From assembly GCF_005696695.1 (NCBI RefSeq), contig NZ_CP040006.1, positions 510,001-542,000 on the forward strand: 32,000 nucleotides of DNA, given 5' to 3'. Shown here in pieces: positions 904 to 28,398 of this stretch. The position numbers and the translations under genes were made by a program. Source of the DNA: Schaalia odontolytica. Lineage in GTDB: Bacteria; Actinomycetota; Actinomycetes; Actinomycetales; Actinomycetaceae. The notes beneath the pieces are model-generated. The model saw only the letters and a program-made list of their open reading frames with translations. It was not told where the DNA came from and did no database searches. Within the stretch, counting starts at the first letter, position 1, and every line of letters starts with the position of its first letter.

Positions 904-2421
904 GTGACGAACTTACTAGAGCTAAAGGGGATCTCAAAGACGTTCCCCGGTGTGAAGGCACTGTCCGACGTGGACCTTGACCTTCGACCCGGTGAAGTCT
1001 TGGGTCTCTGCGGTGAGAACGGAGCGGGTAAGTCCACGCTCATGAAGGTGCTCACCGGTATCCACAAGTCCGACCCGGGCGGCGAGATCTGGCTGCAGGG
1101 AGAGAAGGTCGACATCCAGTCGCCGGAGCACGCGCGTGACCTCGGCCTGTCGATCATCCACCAGGAACTCAACATCGTTCCTGACCTGACCGTCGCCCAG
1201 AACCTGTACATCGGTCGACCCGGCACGTCCAAGTTTGGATACGTCGACGACCGCAAGATGGTCCGTGATGCGCGCGAGCTGTTCGAGCGCCTCAACATGG
1301 ACATCGATCCCACCGCCTACTGCCGCGACCTGCCGGTTGCGCGTCTGCAGATGGTGGAAATTGCGCGCGCGCTGTCCTTTGACTCGAAGATCCTGGTCAT
1401 GGATGAACCCACGGCTCCTCTGACCACGACCGAGACCGAGTCCCTGTTCGAGCTGGTGCGCGACTTCGTGTGCCCGACGACCGGCCTGATCTTCATCACG
1501 CACCGCATGCCCGAGCTCACCGAGCTCACCAACCGCATCTCGGTCCTGCGCGATGGCAAGTACATCGGAACGGTGGACACGGCCACGACGCCCATGAGTG
1601 AGGTCGTCAAGATGATGGTCGGCCGCGAGGTCCCTGCGGACGCGCGTCCCACCACCAAGCCGCTCTCCGACGAGGCCGTCCTGCGCGTCGAGCACCTCTC
1701 GACCGTCAAGGCCGTCCACGACGTGTCCTTCGAGGTCAAGAAGGGTGAAATCTTCGGGTTTGCGGGCCTGGTCGGCGCCGGCCGCACCGAGGTTGCCCGA
1801 GCCCTGTTCGGCGCTGACCCCCACACCGCGGGCGATATCTACGTCCACGGCAAGAAGGTCTCGATCAAGGGCGCGAACGACGCCGTGAAGAACGGTATCG
1901 GCTACCTGTCCGAGGACCGCAAGCAGTTCGGCCTGCTCCTCGACAAGGACATCTCTTTCAACACGGGTATGGCTGCGATGGGCCACTTCAGCACCGCGAC
2001 CGTCGTCGCGACGAAGAAGCTGCGCGAGGTGGCCAAGGACTACGTGGCGAAGCTGCGTACGCGCACCCCCTCCGTGGACGTCGAGCTGCGCAGCCTCTCC
2101 GGCGGCAATCAGCAGAAGGTCGTCGTGGCCAAGTGGCTGGAGCGCGACACTGACATCCTGATCTTCGACGAGCCGACGCGCGGCATCGACGTGGGCGCGA
2201 AGGACGAGATCTACACGCTGCTCGAGGACCTGGCGAAGCAGGGCAAGGCCATCATCGTGATCTCCTCGGAGCTGCCCGAGGTCCTGCGCCTGGCTAACCG
2301 CATCGCCGTCATGGCCCACGGCCGCATCATCGGCACCCTCAACAACGAGGACGCCACCCAAGAAAACATCATGGAACTGGCCACCGTCGGCCAGGAAGAA
2401 GCGAACGGAGAAGTCGCGTGA
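904..2421 (+). CDS. Sugar ABC transporter ATP-binding protein, duplicated-cassette RbsA/MglA type
   Basis: 505 aa with two ABC cassettes: Walker A GENGAGKST and a second GLVGAGRTE, and signature LSGGNQQK. GTG start preceded by AAGGGG. Confidence 0.9.
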   Translation: MTNLLELKGISKTFPGVKALSDVDLDLRPGEVLGLCGENGAGKSTLMKVLTGIHKSDPGGEIWLQGEKVDIQSPEHARDLGLSIIHQELNIVPDLTVAQNLYIGRPGTSKFGYVDDRKMVRDARELFERLNMDIDPTAYCRDLPVARLQMVEIARALSFDSKILVMDEPTAPLTTTETESLFELVRDFVCPTTGLIFITHRMPELTELTNRISVLRDGKYIGTVDTATTPMSEVVKMMVGREVPADARPTTKPLSDEAVLRVEHLSTVKAVHDVSFEVKKGEIFGFAGLVGAGRTEVARALFGADPHTAGDIYVHGKKVSIKGANDAVKNGIGYLSEDRKQFGLLLDKDISFNTGMAAMGHFSTATVVATKKLREVAKDYVAKLRTRTPSVDVELRSLSGGNQQKVVVAKWLERDTDILIFDEPTRGIDVGAKDEIYTLLEDLAKQGKAIIVISSELPEVLRLANRIAVMAHGRIIGTLNNEDATQENIMELATVGQEEANGEVA

Positions 2422-3422
2422 GCACCGTCGTCGACAACAAGGGCCTGGAGGCGCCGTCGCCTTTCAAGACCTTCATGAAGAACAATATGCAGCTGATGCT
2501 CGTCACGGTTGCGCTGTTCGTCATCTTGCTGTTCTTCAGCATCGCAGCCAACGGCTTCGCGAAGCCCAACATCTACCTGGACATCGTCCTGCAGTCGGCC
2601 TACACGGGCGTCATGGCGCTGGGCGCGACCTTCGTTATCGCGACCTCCGGCATTGACCTGTCCGTCGGTACGGGCATGAGCCTCGTGGCGGTTATGGCCG
2701 GTATCTTCCTGGCGGGCGACAAGATGAACCTGCCGCTCGGCCTCGGCCTCCTTCTGACGCTGCTGGTTGGCATGGCGATCGGCCTGGTCAACGGCCTCAA
2801 CGTCTCCATCCTGGGCCTGCCGCCCTTCATCGCGACACTTGCGATGATGATGGTCGCCCGAGGCCTGGCGCTGATCATCTCCGACAAGGCCTCGATCACG
2901 ATCGCGAACACCGGCTACAAGGCCATCGCGCGTGGTGAGATCATCCCCGGCGTCGCAAACGCCGTCCTGATCTTCGTGGTCCTCACCTTCCTGGCGACCT
3001 TCCTTATGAACAAGACGCTGCTCGGCCGCTACTCCCTCGCGATCGGCTCCAACGAGGAGGCCACGCGTCTGTCCGGCGTCAACGTCCGCCTGTGGAAGAT
3101 CATCATCTACGTCGTCGCCGGTGCCTTCATGGCCATCGGTGCTGTCCTCTACTCCTCGCGTGGTGGCCTCGTCCAGCCCGCTGAGGGCGTGGGCATGGAG
3201 CTCAACGTTATCGCCGCAGCCGTCATCGGTGGCACCTCCCTCTCGGGTGGCCGCGCCTCGATCCCCGGCGCCCTGGTTGGTGCGATCATCATGGAGACCC
3301 TCAAGAAGGGCCTGACGATGATGGGTATCGCCGCCGAATGGCAGTTCGTCGTCACCGGTATCGTCCTGCTCCTGGCCGTCGTCATCGACAACATTCGCCG
3401 CGTTCGCGAGAACGCCGCCTGA
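2418..3422 (+). CDS. Sugar ABC transporter permease (RbsC/BPD_transp_2 type)
   Basis: 334 aa, multi-pass hydrophobic protein. The GTGA start/stop overlap with the ATPase gene suggests translational coupling. Confidence 0.85.
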
Positions 3423-3515
3423 TTCTTACCCATTCAATTCACCCATCGTGGACCGACGTCGGTTCACGCACACCAAGGGCGGGAATGACCCCGCCACCCC
3501 ACGAAAGGAAAACCA

Positions 3516-4580
3516 ATGCGCCCCATCGGACGTATCTTCGCCGCCGCCGCCGTCGGCTCCATGGCCCTGGGCCTGGCTGCCTGCACGACTTCGTCGGACT
3601 CCTCCTCCTCGTCCTCCTCCGACGCCAAGCCCAGCGCGTCCTCCGGCTCCGCCAAGGTTGACACCTCCGGCGACATGCAGGATTGGGAGAAGGCCGCGGT
3701 CAAGGGTGACGGCACCAAGACCATCTACCTCGTCTCCAAGGGCTTCCAGCACCGCTTCTGGCAGGCCGTGAAGGAAGGCGCCGAGCAGGCTGGTGAGGAG
3801 CTGGGCTACCAGGTCAAGTTCGTCGGCCCGCAGGACGAGACCAAGGTGACCGAGCAGACCGACCAGCTGAAGTCCGCCCTGGACTCCGGCCCGGCCGCCA
3901 TCGGCTTCGCCGCCCTCGACTCGAAGGCTGCCGCCGACCTGCTCACCGAGATCAACGGCAAGGGCATCCCGGTCGTTGCCTTCGACTCCGGCGTTGAGTC
4001 GGACATCCCCGTCACCACCGTCCAGACGGACAACAAGGCCGCCGCCGCCGAGGCCGCCAAGCACATGATCGAGCTCCTCAAGGGCAAGAAGGGCTCTGTC
4101 GGCATGGTCTGCCACGACGCGACCTCCACCACGGGCAAGCAGCGCTGCGAGGGCTTCAAGGAGTACTTCAAGGCCAACGCTCCCGCCGACCTGAAGCTCC
4201 TCGACGAGCAGATCGCCGGTGAGGTCACCAAGGCCGCCGACACCTCCAAGGCCATCATCCAGGCCAACGACGACATCGTCGGCATGTACGGCTCGAACGA
4301 GGCCGCTGCCTCCGGTATCGTCCAGGGCTCGCAGGAGACCGGCAAGGACGTCACCGTTGTCGGCTTCGACTCGGGCAAGACCCAGATCGACGCCATCAAG
4401 GGCGGCACCGAGGCTGGCGCCGTGACCCAGTCGCCCGTGAAGATCGGCTACTACACGGTCAAGGCCGCTGTCGTCGCGATCAACAAGGGCGAGCTGCCCA
4501 AGGTCATCGACTCGGGCTTCGCCTGGTACGACAAGATGAACATCGACAACGCCGAGATCAAGGCGAACCTGTACGAGTGA
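3516..4580 (+). CDS. Sugar ABC transporter substrate-binding lipoprotein (RbsB/Peripla_BP_4 type)
   Basis: 354 aa. Signal peptide with lipobox LAAC, followed by a Ser-rich tether. Periplasmic-binding-protein pattern (VVAFDSG, VVGFDSG). RBS GAAAGGAAAA lies before the ATG. Confidence 0.85.
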   Translation: MRPIGRIFAAAAVGSMALGLAACTTSSDSSSSSSSDAKPSASSGSAKVDTSGDMQDWEKAAVKGDGTKTIYLVSKGFQHRFWQAVKEGAEQAGEELGYQVKFVGPQDETKVTEQTDQLKSALDSGPAAIGFAALDSKAAADLLTEINGKGIPVVAFDSGVESDIPVTTVQTDNKAAAAEAAKHMIELLKGKKGSVGMVCHDATSTTGKQRCEGFKEYFKANAPADLKLLDEQIAGEVTKAADTSKAIIQANDDIVGMYGSNEAAASGIVQGSQETGKDVTVVGFDSGKTQIDAIKGGTEAGAVTQSPVKIGYYTVKAAVVAINKGELPKVIDSGFAWYDKMNIDNAEIKANLYE

Positions 4581-4648
4581 GCCGATAGCTCCATCGGGCA
4601 CGAGGCCGGGGCTGGGGAAGTGACAAACTGACCTGGTGGCCCGCCGTG

Positions 4649-4698
4649 GGTCCCACTCCGCACCAGTGGGGTGGGACCTGCGGACCCGGCACTTTTTT
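4649..4698 (+). terminator. Possible terminator or processing hairpin after the transporter genes
   Basis: Stem 4649-4660 / 4667-4678 (GGTCCCACTCCG / TGGGGTGGGACC, 12 bp including 2 G-U). T6 tract at 4693-4698, but it sits 14 nt after the stem, which is not canonical. Confidence 0.3.
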
Positions 4699-4769
4699 GT
4701 TCAAAGGATCCGAGGGGGCGAGCGCCCCCGCGCTCCGACATCGACGTCACCATGAGGGATGAAGGAATA

Positions 4770-6533
4770 ATGACAAACCACCCCCGCATCGGAATCCGCC
4801 CCACTATTGACGGCCGCCGCAAGGGCGTTCGTGAGTCGCTCGAAGAGCAGACCATGAACATGGCGAAGTCCGTCGCCGAGCTTTTCACCTCCAACCTGCG
4901 CTACCCGGACGGCAGCCCCGTCGAGGTCGTCATCGCTGACACCACGATCGGCCGCGTCCACGAGGCCCAGGCCTGCGCCGCGAAGTTCCGCGCGAACAAC
5001 GTTGGCCTGACCCTGACGGTCACCCCCTGCTGGTGCTACGGCACCGAGACCACCGACATGGACCCCGCGATGCCGCACGCCATCTGGGGCTTTAACGGCA
5101 CTGAGCGCCCCGGCGCCGTGTACCTCGCCGCCGCCCTGGCCGGCCACGCCCAGATCGGCATCCCCGCCTTCGGCATCTACGGCGAGCACGTGCAGGACGC
5201 TGACGACACCTCCATCCCCGAGGACGTGCGCACCCGCCTCCTCGACTACGCGACCGCCGGCCTGGCCGTCGCGCAGATGAAGGGTGAGGCCTACCTGTCC
5301 ATGGGCTCCGTCTCCATGGGCATCGCCGGCTCCGTCGTCGACCCCGACTTCTTCGGCTCCTACCTCGGCATGCGCAACGAGTACATCGACATGACCGAGT
5401 TCACCCGCCGCATCGAAGAGGGCATCTACGATCACGAAGAGTACGAGCAGGCCTACCAGTGGATCCGCGAGAACTTCAAGCAGGGTAAGGATTGGAACCC
5501 GCCGGAGTGGCAGTACCCCGAGAAGCACGAGGACTGGTGGAAGTTCGTCACCAAGATGACGATCATCGCCCGCGACCTCATGCATGGCAACCCGCGCCTG
5601 GCCGAGCTGGGCTTTGAGGAAGAGGCCGGCGGCCACGGCGCCATCGCGGCCGGCTTCCAGGGTCAGCGTCAGTGGACCGACCACTTCCCCAACGGCGACG
5701 TTCTGGAGACCATCCTCAACACGAACTTCGACTGGACCGGCATCCGCCAGCCCTCCGTCGTGGCCACCGAGAACGACTCGCTCAACGGTGCCTCGATGCT
5801 GTTCGGCTACCTGCTGACCAACACGCCGCAGATCTTCTCCGACGTGCGTACCTACTGGAGCCCCGAGTCCATCGAGAAGGCCACCGGTTGGAAGCCCGAG
5901 GGCCGCGCGGCTGCGGGTCTGCTCGACCTGCGTAACTCCGGCTCGACCACGCTGGACGGCGCCGGCAAGGCCGTGCGCGACGGCGAAAACGTCATCAAGC
6001 CCTGGTACGAGTTCACTGAGGAGGACCGCGAGGCAACGCTCGAGGCCACGACCTTCCACCCGGCCTCGACCGGCTACTTCCGTGGCGGCGGCTTCTCGAC
6101 CCACTTCCGTACCTCCGGCGAGATGCCCGTGACGATGTGCCGCATCAACCTGGTGCGCGGCCTCGGACCGGTCATGCAGATCGCCGAAGGCTACACGGTC
6201 GAGCTGCCCGACGAGGTCGCTTTCACCATCGAAGAGCGCACCAACATCGAATGGCCCACCACCTGGTTCGTCCCGAACCTGACGGGTGAGGGTGCCTTCA
6301 AGAGCGTCTACGACGTCATGAACGCGTGGGGCGCCAACCACGGTGCGATCTCCTACGGCCACATCGGTGGCCAGCTCATCACGCTGGCGTCGATGCTGCG
6401 CATCCCGGTCAACATGCACAACGTCCCCGCGGAGCGCGTGTTCCGCCCCAAGGCGTGGTCGCTGTTCGGCACCGAGTCCCTCGAAGCCGCGGACTTCCGC
6501 GCCTGCGAGACCTTCGGTCCGATGTACCGCTGA
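4770..6533 (+). CDS. fucI: L-fucose isomerase
   Basis: 587 aa from the ATG at 4770 (RBS GAGGGATGAAGGA). Near-colinear with E. coli FucI as I remember it: [86 protein letters not shown]. Confidence 0.95.
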
Positions 6534-6541
6534 TGCAACCA

Positions 6542-6582
6542 CCGGTCGGGCTCGGGTGTCCTCTCTCCCCGAGCCCGACCGG
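6542..6582 (+). terminator. Strong GC hairpin immediately after fucI (terminator, attenuator or mRNA stabiliser)
   Basis: Perfect 15-bp stem CCGGTCGGGCTCGGG / CCCGAGCCCGACCGG with an 11-nt loop, starting 9 nt after the fucI stop. No U-tract follows. Confidence 0.5.
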
Positions 6583-6703
6583 GCTCGCCCCCACGCGGGG
6601 CACAACACCGGGATCCGGCCCCGGCCTCGCCGATGAGGAAAGCCGCACGAGAACCCAACGACGGGACGCGCCGCGCGAGGGCGTTTTGAGCAGGAGACCT
6701 TCA

Positions 6704-8113
6704 ATGACCACCGTACTTGCTGTTGACCTTGGATCCGCATCCGGACGCGTCCTCGCCGGAACGCTGCACGACGGACGCCTCGACGTCACCGACATCCACC
6801 GCTTTAAGCACGAGGCCCGCCGCCGCGAAGACGGCACCCTCACGTGGGATGTGGCCACGATGGAGGCCGAGACGATTACCGGCCTGAAGAAGGCCCTCGA
6901 ACAGTTCCCGGATGCCCGCGCGGTCTCCATTGACACGTGGGGCGTGGATTGGGCTCCCCTCGACGAGAACGGTGAGCTCGTCGGCGACGTCGTCGCCTAC
7001 CGCGACGAACGCACCTCCCGCACCCTTGACGCATTCCGCGATCGCATTGGCGACCGCGAGTTCTTCGACCTGACCGGTAACCAGCCGGCCACCATCAACA
7101 CGGCGAACCAGCTGTTCGCTTACCTGCAGGAAAACCCCGCCGACGCGCAGCGTGTCGCGGCTGCCCTCTTCCTGCCCGACTACTTTGCGTACCGCCTCAC
7201 CGGCGTCGTCGGCTGGTCGCGCACGATCGCCTCGACCTCCGGCCTGCTTACCCCGGGCGGCGGCGACTTTAACGACGAGGTCTTCAACCGTCTCGGTATC
7301 CCGCGCGGCTGGTTCGGTGACCTCGCCGCCGACCGCACCGTTGTCGGCCCCTGCACGGTCCCCGGCCTCGAAACCCTCACCGTCGTGCGCGGCGGTGCCC
7401 ACGACTCCGCGTGCGCCGTCCACGGCCTGCCCATCGAGGAAGGCAAGCGCGCCTACTTCCTGTCCTGCGGCTCCTGGTCCGTCCTCGGCGCCATCGAGGA
7501 TAAGCCCCTCATGAGCGACGCCGCCTTCGACCTGGGCATCACGAACGAGGGCCGCACCGACGGAGGAGTGCGCCCGCTCTTCAACATCACCGGCATGTGG
7601 ATCCTCCAGGAGATTCAGCGCCAGTGGGAGCGCGAGGGCACGCCCACCGACACCGACGAGCTGGTCGCGCAGGCCCGCGAACTGCCCGCCGCGTCCGGTG
7701 TTTTCGACCCCGACGAGGAAGCCTTCGCCACCCCCGGCGACATGCAGCGCAAGATCGACGAGGCCTTGGATGCCCAGGGCGCGGCACGTCCCGACTCCAT
7801 GGCCGGCTATGTGCGCGTCATCATCGAGTCCTTCGCCCGCCGCTACGCCCGTGCCATCGGCGAGCTGACCGAGGCCACGGGGAAGGCCCCCGACCAGCTC
7901 AACCTCGTGGGCGGCGGCGCACGCAACCGCCTCCTGTGCGACCTGACCGCCCAGATCTCGGGAGTCACCGTCGTGCGCGGCCCCATCGAGGCCTCGACCT
8001 TCGGCTCCCTCCTCGCCCAGCTCGAAACCATCGGTGCTCTCGCCGAGGAAGATCGTGCCTCCGTCATCGCAGCCAGTGCAGCAACCCATGTCCACGTCCC
8101 GACCCGCAGCTAA
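6704..8113 (+). CDS. FGGY-family sugar kinase, rhamnulokinase (RhaB)-like; probable ketose 1-kinase of the cluster (fuculokinase role inferred)
   Basis: 469 aa from the ATG at 6704 (RBS CAGGAG). Motifs match RhaB: AVDLGSASGRV, IDTWGVDW, AYRDERT, GSWSVLG, TNEG...NITGMWILQE, LVGGGARN, GPIEAST. Confidence 0.85.
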   Translation: MTTVLAVDLGSASGRVLAGTLHDGRLDVTDIHRFKHEARRREDGTLTWDVATMEAETITGLKKALEQFPDARAVSIDTWGVDWAPLDENGELVGDVVAYRDERTSRTLDAFRDRIGDREFFDLTGNQPATINTANQLFAYLQENPADAQRVAAALFLPDYFAYRLTGVVGWSRTIASTSGLLTPGGGDFNDEVFNRLGIPRGWFGDLAADRTVVGPCTVPGLETLTVVRGGAHDSACAVHGLPIEEGKRAYFLSCGSWSVLGAIEDKPLMSDAAFDLGITNEGRTDGGVRPLFNITGMWILQEIQRQWEREGTPTDTDELVAQARELPAASGVFDPDEEAFATPGDMQRKIDEALDAQGAARPDSMAGYVRVIIESFARRYARAIGELTEATGKAPDQLNLVGGGARNRLLCDLTAQISGVTVVRGPIEASTFGSLLAQLETIGALAEEDRASVIAASAATHVHVPTRS

Positions 8114-9083
8114 GAAGGTCTCGCTCGCCGACATCGCGCGGCGCGCAGGCGTCTCGACCAACACGGTCTCGCGCGTCGTGCGCGGGGACCCTGAGGTGTC
8201 CGAAAAGACGCGCGCGCGCATCGCGAAACTCGTCGAGGAGCTGGGCTACGTGCCCAACTATGCGGCGCGCGCGCTCGCGGCCAAACGCACCAATGTGCTG
8301 CAGGTCGTCCTGGCCGCCCCCATGTTCCACGGACACGGGCGCGTGCTGCTGTCGATCCTCAACGCCTCGTCGCAGGCCGGGTACCACGTGTCCATGTCCT
8401 ACGCGTACGGGCCGGACGGGCAGCTGCGCAACGACTTCGCTCCCTTCGACGTCGACGGCGTCATCATCCTGGGAGGCCAGGACCCGACGATCGACGTTGC
8501 GATTGAATCGGGTAAGCGCTTCCCGACCGTCCTCGTCTTGACGAGCGAAAAGGGCCTCGACGGTATCTCGACCGTCGCTGTCGACAACGTGCGCGGGGCG
8601 CGCCTGGCCACCGAGCACCTGCTCGCCCAGGGGCTCACCGACGTCGTTCACGTCTCTGGTCCCGCCGGTTGGTCGGACGCGCAGATGCGCAGGCTCGGTT
8701 ATGAGCAGGCATGCGCGTCCTACGATATCGAGCCCGTCGTCCTCCAGCCCGACTCGTGGGACTCTCGCGATGGCTACGACGTCATGCGTGCGGCCGGCCG
8801 TCTGCCCCAGGGCATCCAGACCGCGAACGACCAGCTGGCCCTCGGCGCCATGCGCTACATCTACGAGCGCGGGGGAGTGGTTCCGCGCGACGTGCGTGTC
8901 GTCGGCTTCGACGACATTGACGGCGCGGACTCCTACGCACCTCCGCTCACGACGATCCACCAGCCCTTCGATCGCCTGGGACGCACGGCCGTGCGCCTTG
9001 TGCGTTCGCTCATGGGCGGCGGTCCCTCACAGGACATCGTCCTCGACCCCGAGCTGGTCATCCGGGCCAGTTCACACCTGTAA
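8088..9083 (+). CDS. LacI-family transcriptional regulator
   Basis: N-terminal HTH VSLADIARRAGVSTNTVSRVVRG...YVPNYAARALA, then a periplasmic-binding-like effector domain. The ATG at 8088 puts the HTH about 10 aa from the N-terminus and overlaps the kinase 3' end by 26 nt. A start at 8034 is possible. Confidence 0.85.
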   Translation: MSTSRPAAKKVSLADIARRAGVSTNTVSRVVRGDPEVSEKTRARIAKLVEELGYVPNYAARALAAKRTNVLQVVLAAPMFHGHGRVLLSILNASSQAGYHVSMSYAYGPDGQLRNDFAPFDVDGVIILGGQDPTIDVAIESGKRFPTVLVLTSEKGLDGISTVAVDNVRGARLATEHLLAQGLTDVVHVSGPAGWSDAQMRRLGYEQACASYDIEPVVLQPDSWDSRDGYDVMRAAGRLPQGIQTANDQLALGAMRYIYERGGVVPRDVRVVGFDDIDGADSYAPPLTTIHQPFDRLGRTAVRLVRSLMGGGPSQDIVLDPELVIRASSHL

Positions 9084-9096
9084 GAAAGGCACGTTC

Positions 9097-9528
9097 ATGC
9101 TCTATGGACCTATGACGCACCCGCAGTTCCTGCGTGCGCTCGCGGCCGCCGGCCACGGCTCGAAGATTCTGCTGGCGGATGCGAACTACCCGCACACGAC
9201 GGGTGTGAACCCGCGCTGCGAACTCATTTCGCTCAACCTTGCCCCGGGTCTCCTGGATGTCAGCCAGGTCCTTGACGTCCTCAAGCGCACGATTCCGATC
9301 GAGCGCGCCGAGATCATGACCCCCGCCCCCGACGCCGATCCGGTCGAGATCCCGATCCACGACGAGTTCCGCGCTGCTCTGCCCGGCGTGGAGTTCGGCG
9401 AAATTTCCCGCTGGGACTTCTACGATGCCGCACGCGACGAGAACGTCGGCATCATCGTTGCGACGGGCGAGCAGCGCCTGTACGGCAACCTGCTCCTGAC
9501 GGTCGGCGTGCGCCAGCCCGGGGAGTAA
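9097..9528 (+). CDS. fucU: L-fucose mutarotase (RbsD/FucU family)
   Basis: 143 aa from the ATG at 9097. Aligns with E. coli FucU as I remember it: P-L-ALA--GHG--I---DA-FP ... IV-TGE-R-YGN-LL--GV. Confidence 0.85.
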   Translation: MLYGPMTHPQFLRALAAAGHGSKILLADANYPHTTGVNPRCELISLNLAPGLLDVSQVLDVLKRTIPIERAEIMTPAPDADPVEIPIHDEFRAALPGVEFGEISRWDFYDAARDENVGIIVATGEQRLYGNLLLTVGVRQPGE

Positions 9529-9860: not shown

Positions 9861-10610
9861 ATGGGACGTGCAGAAGAACGCACGAACTACATCCTGGATC
9901 GCCTCGCCCGGGAGGGTGAGGTGAGCGTCGCGCAGCTTGCCTCCGATCTGGGAGTTTCGCCCGTCACCGTGCGCGCGTCGCTCAAGTCTCTCGACGAGCA
10001 GGGCTACCTCGTGCGCACCCACGGAGGAGCCCGTCCCACCACCTTCCGCAACATTCACCTGCGTCAGAACGATCGTGTTGAGATCAAGGAGCGCATCGCT
10101 CGTGCCGCCGCCGACATGATCCACGACGACGATCGCATCATGATCGAGGCCGGCACCACCTGCGCCCTCATCGTCAAGTACCTCACCGGCAAGCGTGGGG
10201 TTCAGGTTCTCACCAACTCCGTGCTCGTCTTTGCTAACGCCCGCTCCAACCCGAACCTGAACATCACGCTGACGGGTGGGCACTTCCGCGCCGAGTCCGA
10301 GTCCCTCGTGGGGCCGGTCGCCGAGCGCGCCATTAATGACTTCAACGCTCGCGTCGCGTTCCTCGGGACCGACGGGTTCAGCGTTGATCGGGGTCTGACC
10401 ACCCAGCTCGTAGAAGGTGGACAGGTCGGCTCCATTATGCGTACCCGCGCACAAGAGACGTGGCTGCTCGCTGACTCCTCCAAGTATGGGGAAGCCGGCT
10501 TTGTCAGCTTCATGGGGATCGACGAGGTCACCGGAATCATCACCGACGATGAGATCCCCGAAGAATCCATCAAGGAATTGGCCGAGCGCACGAAGCTGCG
10601 CATCGTCTAG
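9861..10610 (+). CDS. DeoR-family transcriptional regulator (sugar-phosphate-sensing type)
   Basis: 249 aa from the ATG at 9861 (RBS AAAGAGG). HTH_DeoR segment ILDRLAREGEVSVAQLASDLGVSPVTVRASLKSLDEQGYLVRTHGGA, followed by a DeoR C-terminal sensor domain. Confidence 0.9.
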   Translation: MGRAEERTNYILDRLAREGEVSVAQLASDLGVSPVTVRASLKSLDEQGYLVRTHGGARPTTFRNIHLRQNDRVEIKERIARAAADMIHDDDRIMIEAGTTCALIVKYLTGKRGVQVLTNSVLVFANARSNPNLNITLTGGHFRAESESLVGPVAERAINDFNARVAFLGTDGFSVDRGLTTQLVEGGQVGSIMRTRAQETWLLADSSKYGEAGFVSFMGIDEVTGIITDDEIPEESIKELAERTKLRIV

Positions 10611-10620
10611 GAGGAATTAC

Positions 10621-11964
10621 ATGGCCACCATCGTGGTGATGCCCCAGCTGGGCAACTCTGTTGAGTCATGCATCATCGTCGAGTGGATGATCGCAGAAGG
10701 CGACACCGTCTCCGTCGACCAGACGCTCGCGTCCATCGAGACCGACAAGTCGACCATGGAGGTGCCCTCGACCGCCGAGGGTACCGTCCTGAAGCTCCTG
10801 TGGGAGGAAGGCGACGAGGTCCCCGTGAAGGATCCGCTCATCATCGTCGGTGAGCCCGGAGAGGATATCTCCGGCCTCGTTCCCGGTGGCGACGCTGCCC
10901 CCGCCGAAGCCGACGCTCCCGCCGAGCAGGCCGCCGCTGCCCCCGAGGCTGCCGCTCCCGCCTTCGCGACCGAGCGCGCCACCGGCGCCGTCTCCCCGCG
11001 CGCCCGCGCCCTCGCCGCTTCGAACGGCGTCGACGCTTCCGCTATCGCCGAGGGCTCCGGCCCCCACGGCCGCGTCATCGAGCGTGACGTCGCCGCCGCG
11101 ATCGCCGCCGGCCCCGTCCTGACCTCCGCCGCGCGCGCCGCCGGTGTGAGCGCCGCCGAAGGCACCGGCATCGGTGGACGTGTGTCCGTCGCCGACGCCG
11201 GCCGCACCGCCGAGGCCGCGCCCGCCGCCGCTGTCGCCGCCCCCGCCGCGGCCGCCGACTTCCCCGGTGCCTCGACCTCCGCCCCGCTCAAGGGCGTGCG
11301 CAAGGTCGTCGCCAAGCGCATGATGGAGTCCCTGACCTCCACCGCCCAGCTGACCCTCAACACGACGGCCAACGCCGCCGGCATCCTCGCGATGCGCAAG
11401 AAGGTCAAGAACGCCGACGAGGCCCTGGGCCTGAACAAGATCACGCTCAACGACCTGGTCTGCTTCGCGGTGTCGCGCACCCTGCTCAAGTATCCCGTGT
11501 TCAACGCTCACCTGGAGGACGGCGTCCTCACCGAGTTCGAGCAGGTCCACCTCGGCTTCGCGTGCGACACCCCGCGCGGCCTCCTCGTCCCCGTCATCCG
11601 CTCCGCGCAGGCCCTGGGCCTCAAGGCGTTCTCCGACGAGGCCAAGCGCCTTGCCGGCGGCGCGATCGACGGCTCCCTGTCGCCCGACTTCCTGAGCGGC
11701 GGCACCTTCACGGTCTCCAACATCGGTTCCTTCGGTATCGAGACCTTCACCCCCGTCATCAACCTGCCCCAGACGGCCATCCTGGGCGTTGGCGCGATCA
11801 CCCCGCGCCCGACCGTGGCCGGAGACGGCTCGATCGGCGTCGAGCAGCGCCTCAACCTGTCGCTGACGATCGACCACCAGGTCATCGACGGCGCGGACGG
11901 CGCTCGCTTCCTGCGCGACCTGGTTGCCGCCATCGAAAACATCGACGTGACCGTTCTGGCCTGA
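10621..11964 (+). CDS. Dihydrolipoamide acyltransferase (E2) of a 2-oxoacid/acetoin dehydrogenase-type complex
   Basis: 447 aa. Strong RBS TAGGAGGAATTAC. One lipoyl domain (IETDKS), Ala/Pro linkers, an E3-binding domain (SPRARALAASNGVDASAIAEGSGPHGRVIERDV) and a catalytic domain with DHQVIDG. Confidence 0.9.
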   Translation: MATIVVMPQLGNSVESCIIVEWMIAEGDTVSVDQTLASIETDKSTMEVPSTAEGTVLKLLWEEGDEVPVKDPLIIVGEPGEDISGLVPGGDAAPAEADAPAEQAAAAPEAAAPAFATERATGAVSPRARALAASNGVDASAIAEGSGPHGRVIERDVAAAIAAGPVLTSAARAAGVSAAEGTGIGGRVSVADAGRTAEAAPAAAVAAPAAAADFPGASTSAPLKGVRKVVAKRMMESLTSTAQLTLNTTANAAGILAMRKKVKNADEALGLNKITLNDLVCFAVSRTLLKYPVFNAHLEDGVLTEFEQVHLGFACDTPRGLLVPVIRSAQALGLKAFSDEAKRLAGGAIDGSLSPDFLSGGTFTVSNIGSFGIETFTPVINLPQTAILGVGAITPRPTVAGDGSIGVEQRLNLSLTIDHQVIDGADGARFLRDLVAAIENIDVTVLA

Positions 11965-11980
11965 GGAAAGAGGAATACTC

Positions 11981-13348
11981 ATGAGTGACACGCATTTTGA
12001 CGTCATCGTCCTCGGTGCGGGCCCCGGCGGCTACCTGGCCGCCGAGCGCCTCGGACACGCGGGCAAGAAGGTCGCCCTCGTTGAGGAGCAGTACCTGGGC
12101 GGCACCTGCCTGAACGTGGGCTGCATCCCCACCAAGACCCTGCTCAACGGCGCGAAGAACTACCTGCACGCCAAGGAAGCCAGCCAGTTCGGCGTGGACG
12201 CCCAGGGCGTTGCCGTCAACTGGACGCAGATGCAGGCCTGGAAGGATCAGGTCGTCAAGGGCCTGGTCGCCGGCGTCGCAGCCACCGAGCGCAAGGCGGG
12301 CGTGACCGTCATCAATGGACGAGGCCACCTCGACGCCCCCGGTCGCGTGACCGTCGAGGGCACGACCTACACCTCGGATCACGTCATCATCGCGACGGGC
12401 TCCGTGCCGGCCATGCCCCCGCTGCCCGGCACCCAGGACAACCCCGCGCTGGTCGACTCCACGGGCATCCTCTCGCTGCCCGAGGTCCCGGCTCGCCTCG
12501 CGATCATCGGCGGCGGCGTCATCGGCGTCGAGTTCGCCTCCCTGTACTCCACCCTCGGCTCCCAGGTGACCGTCATCGAGATGGCCCCCGAGATCCTGCC
12601 CTTCATGGACGATGACCTGGCCGCCAAGGCCCGCGCCGCCATGAAGGACGTGACCTTCGAGCTGGGCTGCCGCGTCGAGTCCCTCGACGGAGGCACCGTC
12701 CACTACTCCAAGGGCGAGGAGAAGCTGAGCGTCGAGGCCGACGTGGTCCTCATGGCCGTTGGCCGCCGTCCCGCGACGGTGGGCTGGGGCGCCGAAGAGG
12801 CCGGCCTCGAGATCAACCGCGGCATCGTCGTCGACGACACGATGCGCACCAACCTGCCCAACGTGTGGGCCATTGGTGACGTCACCGGACGTTCCCTCCT
12901 GGCGCACGCTGCATACCGCATGGCGGAGATCGCCTCGGCGAACATCCTCGACCCCTCCGCGAAGAAGCGCGGCGAGGTCATGCGCTGGCACACCGTCCCG
13001 TGGGCCGTCTTCTCGATCCCCGAGGCCGCCGGCGTTGGTCTGACCGAGTCCGCCGCCAAGCGCGAAGGCCGCGAGGTCCTCGTTGCCAAGGTGCCCGCCC
13101 TCATGTCCGGCCGCTTCATCGCGGAGAACGGCTTCAAGGCCCCCGGCGAGGCGAAGATCCTCGTCGATCCGAAGACCCACCAGGTGCTGGGCATCCACGT
13201 CCTGGGTGCGTACGCCGCCGAGATGATCTGGGGCGCTCAGGCCGTCCTTGAGATGGAACTGACCGTCGAGGACCTGCGCCAGGTCGTCTTCCCGCACCCC
13301 ACGGTCTCCGAGGTCATCCGCGAAGCCGCGTGGGCCGTCAAGCTCTAA
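11981..13348 (+). CDS. lpd: Dihydrolipoyl dehydrogenase (E3)
   Basis: 455 aa. FAD motif GAGPGGY, redox disulfide GGTCLNVGCIPTK, second dinucleotide fold IIGGGVIGVE, C-terminal HPTVSE. Confidence 0.92.
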   Translation: MSDTHFDVIVLGAGPGGYLAAERLGHAGKKVALVEEQYLGGTCLNVGCIPTKTLLNGAKNYLHAKEASQFGVDAQGVAVNWTQMQAWKDQVVKGLVAGVAATERKAGVTVINGRGHLDAPGRVTVEGTTYTSDHVIIATGSVPAMPPLPGTQDNPALVDSTGILSLPEVPARLAIIGGGVIGVEFASLYSTLGSQVTVIEMAPEILPFMDDDLAAKARAAMKDVTFELGCRVESLDGGTVHYSKGEEKLSVEADVVLMAVGRRPATVGWGAEEAGLEINRGIVVDDTMRTNLPNVWAIGDVTGRSLLAHAAYRMAEIASANILDPSAKKRGEVMRWHTVPWAVFSIPEAAGVGLTESAAKREGREVLVAKVPALMSGRFIAENGFKAPGEAKILVDPKTHQVLGIHVLGAYAAEMIWGAQAVLEMELTVEDLRQVVFPHPTVSEVIREAAWAVKL

Positions 13349-13381: not shown

Positions 13382-15835
13382 ATGACTCAGTCTCTTATCA
13401 TCGACCCCAATGAGGTGCGTCGCCCCGGGTACGTGAAGTTCCCCGAGGTCCCCGTCAACCAGTACACCTTCGACCGTGACACCGAGATCGCCCGCTACGG
13501 CGAAAAGGGCATGGTCCAGATGCTCCACGACATGATCGTCGTGCGCACCTTCGAGTCGATGCTGGACTCCATCAAGAAGACCGGCGCCTGGGAAGGCGTC
13601 GAGTACAACCACCCCGGCCCCGCCCACCTGGGCATCGGCCAGGAGAGCGCCTACGTCGGCCAGAGCTTCGTGCTGTCGCCCGATGACTTCATCTTCGGCT
13701 CGCACCGCTCTCACGGCGAGATCCTCGCCAAGTGCTACTCGGCCATGCACCAGATGGACGAGAGCCAGCTCGAGGGCATCATGAAGGGCTTCCTCGGCGG
13801 CGAGACCCTGTCCTACGCCGAGAAGATCGACTACAAGGACACGAAGGACCTCACCGAGAACTTCATCCTCTTCGGCGCCCTCGCCGAAATCTTCGCCCGC
13901 AAGTCCGGCTTCAACCGCGGCCTGGGCGGCTCGATGCACACCTTCTTCCTGCCCTTCGGCTCCTACCCGAACAACGCGATTGTCGGTGGCTCCGCCCCCG
14001 TCGCCAACGGTGCGGCCCTCTTCAAGCGCATCAACCGCAAGCCCGGCATCGTCATCTCCAACGTCGGTGACGCCGCCCTGGCCTGTGGCCCCGTGTGGGA
14101 GGCCATGAACTTCGCGGCCATGGACCAGTTCCGCTCGCTGTGGCGCGAGGAGGACGGTGGCAACCCGCCGATCCTGTTCAACTTCTTCAACAACTTCTAC
14201 GGCATGGGCGGCCAGACCTTCGGCGAGACCATGGGCTACGAGATCCTCGCCCGCGTGGGCGCGGCCCTCAACCCCGAGGCCATGCACGCCGAGCGCGTCG
14301 ACGGCCTCAACCCGCTGGCCGTCGCGGATGCGACCACCCGCAAGAAGAAGATCCTCGAGGAGGGCCGCGGCCCCGTCCTCATGGACACCATCACCTACCG
14401 CTTCTCCGGCCACTCGCCGTCGGACGCCTCCTCGTACCGCACGAAGGAAGAGGTCGAGCTGTGGGAGCAGGTGGACTGCATCAAGGAGTACAGCAACCTG
14501 CTCATCTCCAACGGCCTGACCACGCAGGACGAGATCGACGGCTACACGGCCTCGCTGACCGAGAAGCTCGTCAAGGTCCTCAAGCTCTCGATCGACGACG
14601 AGACCACCCCGCGTGTTGCCGACGGCTACATCGACTCCGTCATGTTCTCCAACGAGAAGGTCGAGGCCTTCGACGACGCGACCCCCGAGATCGACCTCGA
14701 GGACAACCCGCGCGTCAAGGCGCTGGCCAAGAAGGTGCGTACCTCCGTCGACGAGAACGGCAAGCCCGTCTCCAAGATGCGCATGTACCAGTTCCGTGAC
14801 GGCCTGTTCGAGGCCATGCTGCACCGCTTCAAGACCGACCCGACGATGGCCGCTTGGGGCGAGGAAAACCGCGACTGGGGCGGCGCCTTCGCCGTCTACC
14901 GTGGCCTGACCGAGGCCCTGCCTTACCGTCGCCTGTTCAACTCGCCCATCGCCGAGGCCTCGATCGTGGGCGCCGGCGTCGGCTACGCGATGGCCGGTGG
15001 CCGCGCGGTCGTCGAACTCATGTACTGCGACTTCCTGGGCCGCTCCGGTGACGAGGTCTTCAACCAGATGGCCAAGTGGCAGTCGATGAGCGCTGGCCTG
15101 CTCAAGATGCCTCTCGTCCTGCGCGTGTCCGTGGGTGCGAAGTACGGCGCTCAGCACTCCCAGGACTGGAGCGCGCTCGTCGCTCACATCCCGGGCCTGA
15201 AGGTCTACTTCCCGACCACCCCGACCGACGCCAAGGGCATGCTCAACCTGGCACTCGCCGGAACCGACCCGGTCGTGTTCCTCGAAAGCCAGAAGCTCTA
15301 CGACAAGGGCGAGGACTTCGAGCCCGGCGGCGTGCCCGAGGGCTACTACGAGACCGAAGAGGGCGAGCCGGCGATCCGCCGCGAGGGCACCGACATCACG
15401 ATCGCTGCATACGGCGCGACCGTGTACAAGGCCCTCGAGGCCGCGGACGTCCTGGCTGAGAAGTACGGCCTGAGCGCCGAGGTCATCGACCTGCGCTTCG
15501 TCGCCCCGCTCAACTACGACAAGCTCATTGCCTCCGTGAAGAAGACCGGTCGCCTGGTCCTCACCTCGGACGCCGTCGAGCGTGGCTCCTTCCTCAACAC
15601 GGTCGCCGCCAACGTGCAGACCCTGGCCTTCGACGCGCTCGACGCGCCGATCGCCGTCGTCGCCTCGCGCAACGGCATCACGCCCGGACCCGAGATGGAG
15701 TCGTACTTCTTCCCGCAGGTCTCCTGGATCCTCGACGCGATTCACGAGCGCATCCTCCCGCTGCCCGGCCACGTGCCCACCACGAAGCACGCGACCGAGG
15801 CCGAGATCGCGCGCCTGAACCGCGCGGGACTCTGA
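13382..15835 (+). CDS. Fused thiamine-diphosphate-dependent dehydrogenase E1 component (alpha + beta in one 817-aa chain)
   Basis: The N-terminal half carries E1-alpha features (SHRSHGE; TPP motif GDAALACGP...NFFNNFYGM). The C-terminal half carries E1-beta features ([42 protein letters not shown], transketolase C-terminal-like end). RBS AAGGAAGAG. Confidence 0.9.
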
Positions 15836-15906: not shown

Positions 15907-15950
15907 GCGAGGCCGGGGCTACACTCCTCCTCACCGTGCCCCGGCCTCGC
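15907..15950. repeat. GAGGCCGGGG / CCCCGGCCTC inverted-repeat element (long-loop form)
   Basis: 12-bp arms GCGAGGCCGGGG and CCCCGGCCTCGC separated by 20 nt. Member of the recurring motif family described in the findings. Confidence 0.6.
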
Positions 15951-15994
15951 CCACATACTTGTTTCAATACCGTTTTTCTCCACCCAACGAAGAG

Positions 15995-17341: not shown

Positions 17342-18364
17342 ATGAGTAACGCTCCCGAGGTACGCGGGCTCTTCCTCAAGGCCCTCGGCCGCCCGGTTAT
17401 CGTGGCCCCCAGCTCGGCGGAGCCGACCGTCACCTTCGACGGCCCGCTCACCGAGGTGTGCCCCTGCTCCCTGAAGGAGACGGAGCTTCCCGTCGTCGTG
17501 CGCGCCGGCGAGGAGACCTTCGAGGTCCGCGCCACCGCCACGGGTGAGCGCGCCATCAACGGCCGCGTCGCCCTCGTCACGGGTGGTGCCCAGGGCTTCG
17601 GTGCGGAGATCGCGCGCGGTCTGGTGGACGCCGGCTGCTTCGTGTACGTCGCCGACCTGAACGGCGAGGGTGCGGCAGCCAAGGCGGCCGAACTCGGCGG
17701 TGAAGGCGTTGCCCACCCGATCACGGTCAACGTCGCCGACGAGGAATCCGTCGCCGCGATGGCCTCCGAGATTGAGCGCGTCACCGGCGGCCTTGACCTG
17801 GTCGTCTCCAACGCGGGCATCGTGCGCGCGGGCTCGGTCCTCGAGCAGGACGCCTCGGCGTTCCGCCTGTCCACCGACATCAACTACGTGGCCTTCTTCC
17901 TGGTCACCAAGCACCTGGGCCAGCTCCTGGCTCGCCAGCACTCGACCGCCCCCGAGTGGCTGACCGACATCATCCAGATCAACTCCAAGTCCGGCCTCGT
18001 CGGCTCGAACAAGAACGCCGCCTACGCGGGCTCGAAGTTCGGCGGTATCGGCCTGGTCCAGTCCTTCGCCCTCGAGATGGTTGCTCACGGCGTGAAGGTC
18101 AACGCGATCTGCCCCGGCAACTTCTACGACGGCCCGCTCTGGTCCGACCCGGACCGCGGCCTCTTCGTCCAGTACCTGAACTCCGGCAAGGTGCCCGGCG
18201 CCAAGACGGTTGCCGACGTCAAGGAGTTCTACGAGGCGAAGGTCCCCATGCGCCGTGGCGCCCAGGGCATCGACGTTCTGCGTGCGATCTTCTACATCGT
18301 CGAGCAGGAATACGAGACCGGCCAGGCCGTGCCCGTCACGGGCGGCCAGGTGATGCTCTCCTGA
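17342..18364 (+). CDS. Short-chain dehydrogenase closely resembling sorbitol-6-phosphate 2-dehydrogenase (SrlD/GutD), with a ~70-aa N-terminal extension
   Basis: 340 aa. RBS AAGAAAGAGAG. Motifs VTGGAQGFG, NAG, IIQINSKSGLVGSNKNAAYAGSKFGGIGLVQSFALE and a VTGGQVM end match SrlD as I remember it nearly block for block. Confidence 0.85.
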   Translation: MSNAPEVRGLFLKALGRPVIVAPSSAEPTVTFDGPLTEVCPCSLKETELPVVVRAGEETFEVRATATGERAINGRVALVTGGAQGFGAEIARGLVDAGCFVYVADLNGEGAAAKAAELGGEGVAHPITVNVADEESVAAMASEIERVTGGLDLVVSNAGIVRAGSVLEQDASAFRLSTDINYVAFFLVTKHLGQLLARQHSTAPEWLTDIIQINSKSGLVGSNKNAAYAGSKFGGIGLVQSFALEMVAHGVKVNAICPGNFYDGPLWSDPDRGLFVQYLNSGKVPGAKTVADVKEFYEAKVPMRRGAQGIDVLRAIFYIVEQEYETGQAVPVTGGQVMLS

Positions 18365-20085: not shown

Positions 20086-20122
20086 GCCCCGGCCTCGTCT
20101 GTCACTCGGACGAGGCCGGGGC
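20086..20122 (+). terminator. Intrinsic terminator (short-loop form of the CCCCGGCCTC / GAGGCCGGGG element)
   Basis: Perfect 14-bp stem GCCCCGGCCTCGTC / GACGAGGCCGGGGC with a 9-nt loop and a T-rich tail CTTCTTTCTCT, 20 nt after the MDR stop. Confidence 0.7.
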
Positions 20123-22566: not shown

Positions 22567-22625
22567 CGTTGTTCCTAGCGTTGATGGATGTTCGTGGACA
22601 CGGCAAGGCCGCGCTGATGGTCCCG

Positions 22626-22655
22626 AGTATAGCCCGTCGGTCAACGAAAGGTAAA
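22626..22655 (-). promoter_or_regulatory. Candidate promoter of the symporter gene
   Basis: On the minus strand: TTTACC (22655-22650), 18-nt spacer, TATACT (22631-22626). About 60 nt upstream of the ATG. Confidence 0.35.
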
Positions 22656-22919: not shown

Positions 22920-23170
22920 TTTCCTTGTTGCGCCGAACGGCAGCGAACGAAGCGAAAAGCTCGAGTCGCGGAAACATGGCGCGGAACACCTTTCGAAAAC
23001 ATGCGAGATATTCGTGTGCGCTTGATCGTGTGGGTGTTGTTTGTGAACTCGATAGTGTGTTTGTTTGTTTTTTATGCCTGTTTTTTGTTTTTGAGTGTTT
23101 TTGGTTGGGATTGCTGGCTGGCCTTTTTTGGTTGGTTGGTTTTTCTGGGCTTTAACGTTTTTGTTTTTGT

Positions 23171-28150
<4,980 letters not shown>

Positions 28151-28278
28151 ACCCAACACAACGGGTAAGAGCAAAAAACACGAACAAACGTCGTGCCGCA
28201 ACCACTATACAAACCACGATCAACCCACACCCCCACCAAACAAACGAGCGTGCGGGGAACAGTGTTGAACACCAATAC

Positions 28279-28398
28279 TTGTGGTGGTCATAGCACCGGG
28301 GAAACGCCCAGCCTCCATTCCGAACCTGGAAGCTAAGCCCGGCAGCGCCAATGGTACTGCAACCGCCAGGTTGTGGGAGAGTAGGACACCGCCACAAC
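28279..28398 (+). rRNA. rrf: 5S ribosomal RNA
   Basis: Contains GGTCATAGCACCGGGGAAACGCCCAGCCTCCATTCCGAACCTGGAAGCTAAGCC...GGGAGAGTAGGACACCGCCACAAC. The terminal helix pairs 28279-28287 with 28389-28397. Confidence 0.93.

Follow-up and report, generated by a model that had tools for sequence, protein, structure and literature searches.

A putative aldolase-less L-fucose module in Schaalia odontolytica and its conserved linkage to a DeoR-controlled PHP/SDR/MDR/E1-E2-E3 operon

Introduction

Fucose from host mucins and other glycans is a major resource in the oral cavity and the gut. It is currently assumed to be used either through the FucIKA route, which forms 1,2-propanediol and feeds propionate producers, or through an oxidative, nonphosphorylative route. 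Another way of handling a ketose 1-phosphate is known from L-sorbose catabolism, in which SorE reduces the ketose 1-phosphate and a short-chain dehydrogenase/reductase (SDR) of the SorF/SrlD type reoxidizes the alditol phosphate at its other end. SorE-type ketose-1-phosphate reductases belong to the polyol dehydrogenase branch of the medium-chain dehydrogenase/reductase (MDR) superfamily (PMC11519228). Here, we analyze a stretch of 32,000 nucleotides of the genome of Schaalia odontolytica, an actinobacterium of mouth and gut (G000:C1:510001-542000; referred to below as the window), which carries a fuc module at positions 904 to 9528 and, adjacent to it, an operon headed by a gene for a DeoR-family regulator.

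The fuc module encodes an importer, an isomerase, a kinase, a regulator, and a mutarotase and lacks an aldolase gene. We propose, with a probability of roughly 55%, that it is an aldolase-less L-fucose module and that the DeoR-controlled operon, which encodes a PHP-fold enzyme, an SDR, an MDR, and an E1-E2-E3 complex, would take the place of FucA and FucO/AldA. Gene identities, the genome-wide absence of the aldolase, conserved gene linkage, and a distribution complementary to that of FucA are shown directly here.

Absence of a fucose-splitting aldolase from the genome

The genome consists of a single contig of 2.36 Mb with about 65% G+C and is rated 100% complete. An earlier note on this DNA had found neither FucA nor a lactaldehyde reductase or dehydrogenase in the 32 kb, and this absence holds for the whole genome in searches with PF00596, with the iron-dependent alcohol dehydrogenase (Fe-ADH) family, and by tblastn. 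PF00596 has one match in the complete genome, 1.1 Mb from the fuc genes, and this gene is AraD (NF005123, 376 bits; cut-off, 251 bits); besides AraD, no fucose-splitting class II aldolase of this family was found in the complete genome. The araD gene is part of a LacI-AraD-AraA-substrate-binding protein-ATPase-permease operon (G000:C1:1631600-1639200; L002:3624-11177). This arabinose operon has no adjoining ribulokinase gene, the sole candidate being a divergent FGGY gene of 557 amino acids (aa) at C1:2264159-2265832. Likewise, Escherichia coli FucA, RhaD, FucO, and RhaA as tblastn queries gave no match in the genome other than AraD, and no Fe-ADH of the FucO type (PF00465) scored over the cut-off in the complete genome. 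The three genes of the Aldedh family comprise a best match of the CoA-acylating methylmalonate semialdehyde dehydrogenase (MMSDH) type, a gene within a reading frame of 1230 aa, and a weak match of 66 bits that is possibly of the ProA type. No AldA was recognized among these three, of which one is classed (MMSDH type).

In other genomes, the PF00596 profile picks up fused aldolase domains of the RhaE type at 55 to 76 bits; a domain of this type would therefore have shown here. Other aldolase families are represented in the genome by DeoC, two PF01116 ketose-bisphosphate aldolases, an FSA-like protein, and a transaldolase, none of which is encoded near the fuc genes. The earlier suggestion that the aldolase might be encoded elsewhere thus finds no support, since AraD is the sole class II aldolase-family gene of the genome and six related genomes with the module have no PF00596 gene anywhere (G010, G100, G121, G138, G151, and G154; four sister species of the window's genus, Pauljensenia hongkongensis, and Schaalia cardiffensis). 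The idea that AraD moonlights as FucA was rejected on the same ground.

Distribution of fuc modules with and without an aldolase

We distinguish a canonical arrangement, LacI-FucI-kinase-FucA-FucU (type A), from the arrangement of the window, which has no aldolase (type B). FucI was found in 20 of the 151 Actinomycetaceae genomes sampled, and these fall into two groups according to the presence of the fused E1 gene of the DeoR operon. FucI and the fused E1 occur together in eight of the 20, namely, all seven genomes of the window's genus (G000 included) and G006; none of the eight has a class II aldolase in its fuc module. Among the seven genomes of the window's genus, PF00596 is absent from four and represented only by an AraD-like gene in three. 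Of the remaining 12 genomes, which have FucI without the fused E1, 11 carry a class II aldolase gene no more than about 3 kb away from fucI, in the canonical order. The twelfth, G145, has neither an adjoining aldolase nor the fused E1.

The type B block has a fixed order, ATPase-permease-binding protein-FucI-kinase-LacI-FucU, with the LacI gene between the kinase and FucU genes in all type B modules. Also without an aldolase, it was found in Schaalia/Pauljensenia, a further Actinomycetaceae genus (g7), Arachnia, and Tessaracoccus, with identities across these blocks of 71 to 99% for FucI, 51 to 99% for the kinase, and 56 to 100% for FucU. The blocks of Arachnia and Tessaracoccus, 71 to 75% (FucI), 53 to 56% (kinase), and 56 to 63% (FucU) identical to that of the window, are retained even at a distance of 4 to 80 kb from the E1 operon.

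Canonical type A clusters (e.g., L093 to L103) occur in the same family and employ the same enzyme families, their kinases being likewise RhaB-like, and one type A genome (G020) has an ABC importer orthologous to that of the window (59 to 67% identity). They differ in having a class II aldolase gene at most 3 kb from fucI and in lacking the fused-E1 operon, and their proteins form a separate lineage (identity to the window of 55 to 62% for FucI, 31 to 41% for the kinase, and 30 to 35% for FucU). In a maximum likelihood tree of FucI, the type A proteins form one clade (support, 100/100), while FucI of Schaalia clusters with FucIs from type B modules of Propionibacteriaceae (99/97), apart from the FucA-linked FucIs of its own family. 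This position outside the type A clade argues that type B is a separate evolutionary unit and did not arise by a recent loss of fucA.

Linkage of FucI to the DeoR-E2-E3-E1 cluster

More than 595 orthologue-level relatives of the fused E1 were found in species-representative genomes (2652 homologues for its alpha half), and conservation of the gene cluster was judged on the best 80 fused-E1 loci. Among these, the core DeoR-E2-E3-E1-PHP-SDR(-MDR) is kept across Actinomycetaceae, Propionibacteriaceae, and Spirochaetota, including DeoR at the head of the module. Of the 30 cluster-bearing genomes searched, 23 have FucI; these 23, which come from the same three lineages, all have the DeoR-E2-E3-E1 arrangement, and PHP and SDR genes were detected at 21 of the 23 loci. 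The fuc genes adjoin the cluster in at least three gene orders: the fuc module lies upstream of DeoR in Schaalia and downstream of the MDR gene in Tessaracoccus antarcticus, and fucI immediately precedes DeoR in metagenome-assembled genomes of the Alkalispirochaeta type. In several further genomes, FucI is encoded slightly beyond the 10-kb flank that was searched for neighbors. No PF00596 gene was found within 50 kb of fucI in any of the 23 genomes with FucI and the cluster. Tessaracoccus and Arachnia have a short gene of the TAL/FSA family close to the cluster (L038, L044, L045, L049, and L054); it would fit a tetrose phosphate product but may reflect mere shared synteny.

The earlier note had raised the DeoR cluster as a possible alternative fate of the ketose 1-phosphate. 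This idea gains strong support from comparative genomics, through the repeated linkage to FucI across phyla and the complementarity with FucA.

Substrate and kinase of the fuc module

All components named in the earlier note, i.e., an RbsACB-type importer, FucI, an FGGY kinase, a LacI regulator, and FucU in one orientation, are present on the plus strand (Table 1). Every plus-strand open reading frame (ORF) from 904 to 21008 has coding-type G+C content at third codon positions (GC3) by frame analysis, with values of 0.75 to 0.98 for the fuc genes. The position given for the LacI regulator is that of the start codon chosen at 8088.

TABLE 1 Genes of the fuc module and of the DeoR operon in the window
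Feature	Position	Strand	Evidence
ABC transporter ATPase, RbsA type	904..2421	+	Two ABC_tran domains, PF00005 155 bits
ABC permease BPD_transp_2, RbsC type	2418..3422	+	PF02653 127 bits
Periplasmic sugar-binding protein, predicted L-fucose ligand	3516..4580	+	Peripla_BP_4 175 bits
L-Fucose isomerase FucI	4770..6533	+	NF008220 1016 bits, TIGR01089 945 bits, both over cut-off (775 and 850 bits)
FGGY kinase, RhaB-like, predicted L-fuculokinase	6704..8113	+	FGGY_N and FGGY_C domains
LacI-family regulator of the fuc module	8088..9083	+	LacI HTH and Peripla_BP_3
RbsD/FucU-family mutarotase	9097..9528	+	PF05025 97 bits; FucU equivalog 40 bits, under cut-off (141 bits)
DeoR-family regulator, first gene of operon	9861..10610	+	HTH_DeoR and DeoRC domains
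E2 lipoyl acyltransferase	10621..11964	+	Biotin_lipoyl, E3_binding, 2-oxoacid_dh
E3 dihydrolipoyl dehydrogenase	11981..13348	+	Pyr_redox_2 and Pyr_redox_dim
Fused E1 alpha-beta thiamine diphosphate enzyme, candidate for C-C cleaving step	13382..15835	+	E1_dh, Transket_pyr, Transketolase_C
PHP-fold metal enzyme (predicted), 439 aa	15995..17314	+	No Pfam match (PF02811 included) at threshold used
SrlD-like SDR, 340 aa, with 70-aa N-terminal stub	17342..18364	+	Sorbitol-6-phosphate dehydrogenase model 206 bits
Oversized zinc-ADH-type (MDR) dehydrogenase	18465..20066	+	ADH_N 36-155, ADH_zinc_N 326-457 (residues of ORF from 18450)

The importer is shared with other fuc modules. Its ATPase is 61 to 68% identical to the fuc-module ATPases of other genera, including that of a canonical FucA-bearing cluster, and orthologues of the permease (58 to 70% identity) occupy the equivalent position in Arachnia, Tessaracoccus, and genome G020. 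The binding protein scores under all NCBIfam equivalog cut-offs, with allose (95 bits) and ribose (76 bits) models at the top, and is 67% identical to that of a canonical ABC-LacI-FucI-FucK-FucA-FucU cluster (L093). The FucU-family protein is 56 to 63% identical across other type B modules. Because the importer as a whole is orthologous (59 to 67% identity) to that of the canonical FucIKA cluster L093 and GH29 fucosidases are encoded by four genes of the genome (five PF01120 matches), L-fucose is favored, and appears to be the most likely substrate of the module.

The kinase resembles RhaB more than E. coli FucK, as the earlier note had stated. It is 35% identical to E. coli RhaB and 26% to E. 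coli FucK, its four RhaB-type motifs are closer to RhaB, and it scores 345 bits with the rhamnulokinase model and 76 bits with the E. coli FucK model, both under the cut-offs (528 and 471 bits, respectively). However, this likeness is not diagnostic of the substrate. Kinases of canonical FucI-FucK-FucA clusters of Actinomycetaceae have the same motifs and score 199 bits with the RhaB model and 68 bits with the E. coli FucK model. RhaB-likeness was therefore rejected as a sign of a substrate other than fucose; furthermore, the genome has no RhaA, and the kinase of the window is its sole RhaB-like gene. The kinase is 51 to 56% identical to those of other aldolase-less modules and 31 to 41% identical to FucA-linked kinases.

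Genes of the DeoR operon

The DeoR regulator is 26% identical to E. coli FucR. The fused E1 is the sole alpha-beta E1 of the genome, and a further E2/E3 pair is encoded at 1.15 Mb, which indicates that E1-E2-E3 of the window form a second, dedicated complex. The fused E1 is 99% identical to that of S. odontolytica UMB0018, which places the organism in this species or very near it. Its best Protein Data Bank (PDB) matches are the E1 subunits of pyruvate dehydrogenase (PDH) and BCKDH, the NCBIfam scores of E1, E2, and E3 are all under cut-off, and homologue names are generic as to the substrate class (acetoin versus 2-oxoacid). An assignment of the E1 to the acetoin or pyruvate type by NCBIfam, PDB, or homologue names was thus dropped as uninformative.

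The 439-aa protein encoded after E1 is predicted to adopt a PHP fold and has metal motifs of the HxH and DH types. Its AlphaFold model (pLDDT, 91) matched best the PHP phosphoesterases 3o0f, 2yb1, and 9etk in Foldseek, with a target TM-score of about 0.7. Invariant in 25 orthologues are the HxH and DHD motifs and many Arg and Lys residues; the conserved positions include H41, H43, D72, H73, E98, H194, and H384. A 751-aa fusion of PHP and SDR in one genome (G117, L125:2091-4346) suggests that the two enzymes may act on neighboring intermediates.

The best family of the SDR is sorbitol-6-phosphate dehydrogenase (NF009050; cut-off, 307 bits), ahead of the C-terminal half of RhaEW (136 bits), and no PF00596 domain was found in its 340 aa. 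The 451-aa ORF and the SDR gene share a frame, and their reading as a single interrupted gene was rejected since a good ribosome-binding site and an ATG come after the stop codon. The MDR has about 170 additional residues between its GroES-like and Rossmann domains, and its PDB matches are weak. The spirochaete and G006 clusters have a different MDR of about 420 aa, 66 to 87% identical among themselves and about 25% identical to that of the window.

A strong terminator with a 16-bp stem at 20086-20122 ends the operon after the MDR gene; apart from it, no convincing signal emerged when the intergenic regions were scanned in a simple way for promoters and operators. A GC-rich, REP-like hairpin arm (GAGGCCGGGGC / GCCCCGGCCTC) is repeated at the gene boundaries 4603-4620, 6618-6635, 15911-15955, and 20086-20122.

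A possible route for L-fucose

Genomes without any class II aldolase still retain an intact, conserved type B module, so its remaining genes must suffice. In the proposed route, the ABC system would import L-fucose, FucU would anomerize it, and FucI would convert it to L-fuculose, from which the RhaB-like kinase would form L-fuculose 1-phosphate. From here on, the route would depart from the FucIKA pathway, and the ketose phosphate would pass to the adjacent DeoR operon without being split into dihydroxyacetone phosphate (DHAP) and L-lactaldehyde. We infer the kinase product, this hand-over, and all chemical steps thereafter.

The MDR and the SDR would shift the carbonyl from C2 to C5 via L-fucitol 1-phosphate, as SorE and SorF do in L-sorbose catabolism. 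The product, a 1-deoxy-2-ketohexose 6-phosphate, would have an acetoin-like methyl-ketol end, and the thiamine diphosphate-dependent E1 is the sole obvious C-C cleaving enzyme in the module. The thiamine/lipoamide complex would cleave the C4-C5 bond to yield acetyl-CoA and a tetrose 4-phosphate, and the latter would enter the pentose phosphate pathway.

We put this chemistry forward only tentatively, as a less certain claim than the replacement of FucA and FucO/AldA by the operon. It would constitute a third, aldolase-independent route for L-fucose, in which the carbonyl is moved to the methyl end and the E1-E2-E3 complex cuts a sugar phosphate to acetyl-CoA and tetrose phosphate. If this tentative picture is right, all six carbons would be conserved and no 1,2-propanediol formed, the sister variant of the module described below would probably serve L-rhamnose, and the route would have a wide distribution among anaerobes, including oral and gut Actinomycetota and Spirochaetota. 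Full-text literature searches gave no relevant match for an aldolase-free fucose route, for fucitol phosphate, or for fucose use by S. odontolytica or strain XH001.

Several observations weigh against the proposal. The stereochemistry of the keto shift gives D-threose 4-phosphate or L-erythrose 4-phosphate, not D-erythrose 4-phosphate, so that an extra isomerase is needed. The route leaves the strictly conserved PHP enzyme without a role. The kinases and MDRs of the actinobacterial and spirochaete versions of the module are not orthologous, and the roles assigned here to the genes have been read from sequence. G006, which has FucI and the fused E1, also has a FucA-like gene, 47% identical to a FucA of one canonical cluster, in a convergent operon beside the cluster. 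Furthermore, Rodionov et al. proposed that a homologous acetoin dehydrogenase-like complex of Caldicellulosiruptor handles L-lactaldehyde from a normal aldolase (PMC8579813). Finally, the module can coexist with an aldolase in a sister variant and may act downstream of one, and the type B SDR looks like an aldolase-SDR fusion that has lost the aldolase part.

This sister variant lacks FucI (type R). The fused E1 occurs in 13 of the 151 Actinomycetaceae genomes, five of which have no FucI; these five and the loci of the Propionicimonas group encode a RhaB-like kinase, a PHP homologue, an SDR, an oversized MDR, DeoR, E2, E3, and E1. In many type R loci, the SDR, 48 to 58% identical to that of the window, forms the C-terminal half of a protein of 655 to 680 aa, with a class II aldolase domain (PF00596, 61 to 74 bits) as the N-terminal half; one genome has a PHP-SDR fusion in place of this protein. 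This domain retains the three Zn-binding histidines and the catalytic Glu and is apparently active; it might be a C4 epimerase, converting L-rhamnulose 1-phosphate to L-fuculose 1-phosphate, or a true aldolase. The 70-aa stub of the window SDR aligns to the interdomain region of these fusions. The fusions score 254 to 323 bits with the RhaEW equivalog models, far under all cut-offs (568 bits), and their SDR half is SrlD-like. A tblastn result without any class II aldolase in the 80 E1 loci was discarded, as Pfam shows the SDR-fused domain in the FucI-less variant. FucA, RhaD, and AraD as tblastn queries miss this divergent SDR-fused aldolase, and the statement that the loci are free of aldolase is valid for FucI-linked loci only.

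The convergent operon of G006 (L091:794-4744) encodes a RhaEW-like aldolase/SDR (750 bits), an LsrF-type 3-hydroxy-5-phosphonooxypentane-2,4-dione thiolase (456 bits, over cut-off), and the FucA/OtnC-like class II aldolase. The LsrF-type thiolase likewise yields acetyl-CoA from a 1-deoxy diketo phosphate. Finally, a distant FucI-like isomerase of about 510 to 550 aa, scoring 20 to 53 bits with the FucI domains and model, adjoins FucI-less or additional copies of the module (L123:6331-7986 in G105; G167:C4:387216-388091). In G105 it is accompanied by a FucU-like gene and an ABC importer, and it possibly serves another sugar.

Alternative explanations

The main rival explanation, which we consider unlikely, holds that L-fuculose 1-phosphate is still split into DHAP and L-lactaldehyde by a protein outside the class II family, the best candidate being the PHP enzyme; the SDR, the MDR, and E1-E2-E3 would then turn lactaldehyde into an acyl-CoA, via lactate and pyruvate or as lactyl-CoA. 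The fusion of the type R SDR homologue to an apparently active class II aldolase domain has the architecture of RhaEW, a validated aldolase and lactaldehyde dehydrogenase (PMC3870299), and the window SDR retains the stub of such a fusion. However, the window SDR is nearer to sorbitol-6-phosphate dehydrogenase than to RhaW. The PHP homologue of type R is the most diverged of the core components (24% identity to that of the window; hhalign probability, 98.4%), which is consistent with a changed function. Against this, PHP-fold enzymes are known as phosphoesterases, as are all of the closest structures to the model, and the variant equipped with an aldolase domain of its own also has a PHP homologue. 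The proposal of Rodionov et al. for lactaldehyde cited above also speaks for this explanation. However, C. saccharolyticus releases propanediol from rhamnose in a 1:1 ratio (PMC4187192), and its complex thus does not consume lactaldehyde in bulk. In addition, an unphosphorylated lactaldehyde would not readily account for a DeoR regulator or for an enzyme with a phosphoesterase fold, and a pathway-specific pyruvate dehydrogenase would duplicate central metabolism.

It is still less probable that an unrelated or promiscuous aldolase (DeoC, one of the two class II ketose-bisphosphate aldolases, the FSA-like protein, or a moonlighting AraD) cleaves L-fuculose 1-phosphate and that the link to the DeoR cluster is regulatory or coincidental. 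Such genes and a transaldolase gene do exist in this genome, as listed above, and G145, with a fucI gene beside neither an aldolase gene nor the fused E1, shows that unlinked arrangements occur. However, none of the candidates is encoded near the fuc genes, and AraD is absent from the six module-bearing genomes. Among DHAP-dependent aldolases, FBA/TBA-type enzymes make 3S products, and L-fuculose 1-phosphate is 3R. Coincidence also does not account for linkage in three lineages with differing gene orders or for co-occurrence in 23 of 23 genomes.

Finally, a nondeoxy sugar such as D-arabinose, converted via D-ribulose to D-ribulose 5-phosphate for the pentose phosphate pathway, would make an aldolase unnecessary and leave the downstream operon to another substrate, and it is true that FucI also isomerizes D-arabinose (E. 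coli B uses FucI with ribulokinase for this sugar), that the binding protein is ribose/allose-like by profile, and that phosphorylation at C1 is a prediction, but this is the least probable reading, since RhaB, the nearest characterized kinase family, phosphorylates C1, the conserved linkage of FucI to the E1 module would be left unexplained, and both the importer and the fucosidase genes point to L-fucose.

Flanking genes

A 275-aa ORF with coding-type GC3 and without a Pfam or NCBIfam match lies at 20181-21008; it is 71 to 85% identical to ORFs 3' of the operon in close relatives only. Beyond it, the window contains a Na+/alanine symporter gene (21097-22644, minus strand), a complete rRNA operon at 23168-28397 (16S, 23168-24705; 23S, 25026-28149; 5S, 28280-28397), which causes the drop in G+C at 22 to 28 kb, and genes for a PMT-family protein O-mannosyltransferase (29322-31115, minus strand) and a ZnuA-type metal-binding protein (31219-31998, plus strand). 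The symporter, mannosyltransferase, and metal-binding protein genes are unrelated to the fuc module and the DeoR operon.

Significance and comparison with known systems

In annotation, genomes without fucA are scored fucose negative, although the module described here is intact, conserved, and widespread. If the proposed route is true, metabolic reconstructions, cross-feeding predictions, and fermentation balances would change for Schaalia, Arachnia, Treponema, and other taxa, and the lipoamide complex would gain a new role in direct sugar phosphate cleavage. The organism is culturable, and genetic tools exist for S. odontolytica XH001, a host of Saccharibacteria.

The locus resembles the E. 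coli fucPIKUR/fucAO system in its FucI (59% identity), FucU-family mutarotase (32%), FGGY ketose kinase, and neighboring DeoR regulator. It differs in having an ABC importer in place of FucP, a RhaB-like kinase, and an additional LacI regulator, and in the absence of FucA and FucO from the whole genome. The DeoR operon shares with acetoin dehydrogenase and PDH-type complexes an alpha-beta thiamine diphosphate E1, a lipoyl E2, and a flavin adenine dinucleotide (FAD) E3, for which all Pfam domains are present. An acetoin dehydrogenase-like complex is also encoded in the DeoR-regulated rhamnose locus of Caldicellulosiruptor bescii (Athe_0702-4; PMC8579813), and the locus of the window is likewise a putative deoxy-sugar locus under a DeoR-family regulator. 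In contrast to Caldicellulosiruptor, which has RhaD, the E1 alpha and beta parts are fused in the window, a PHP enzyme, an SrlD-like SDR, and an MDR stand alongside, and the fuc module has no aldolase.

The SDR of the window is homologous to the C-terminal half of RhaEW (PMC3870299), and the type R fusion has the same architecture as RhaEW, whereas the window protein has no aldolase domain and keeps only the 70-aa stub. The closest parallel to the proposed carbonyl shift is the L-sorbose pathway, where an MDR (SorE) and an SDR (SorF/SrlD) likewise follow a ketose 1-phosphate, the likeness to SorE being one of superfamily. The MDR of the window is very divergent, with its insert of about 170 aa, and the SDR scores under the SrlD cut-off. 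The product would also differ, being a 1-deoxy ketose phosphate that is then cleaved and not fructose 6-phosphate.

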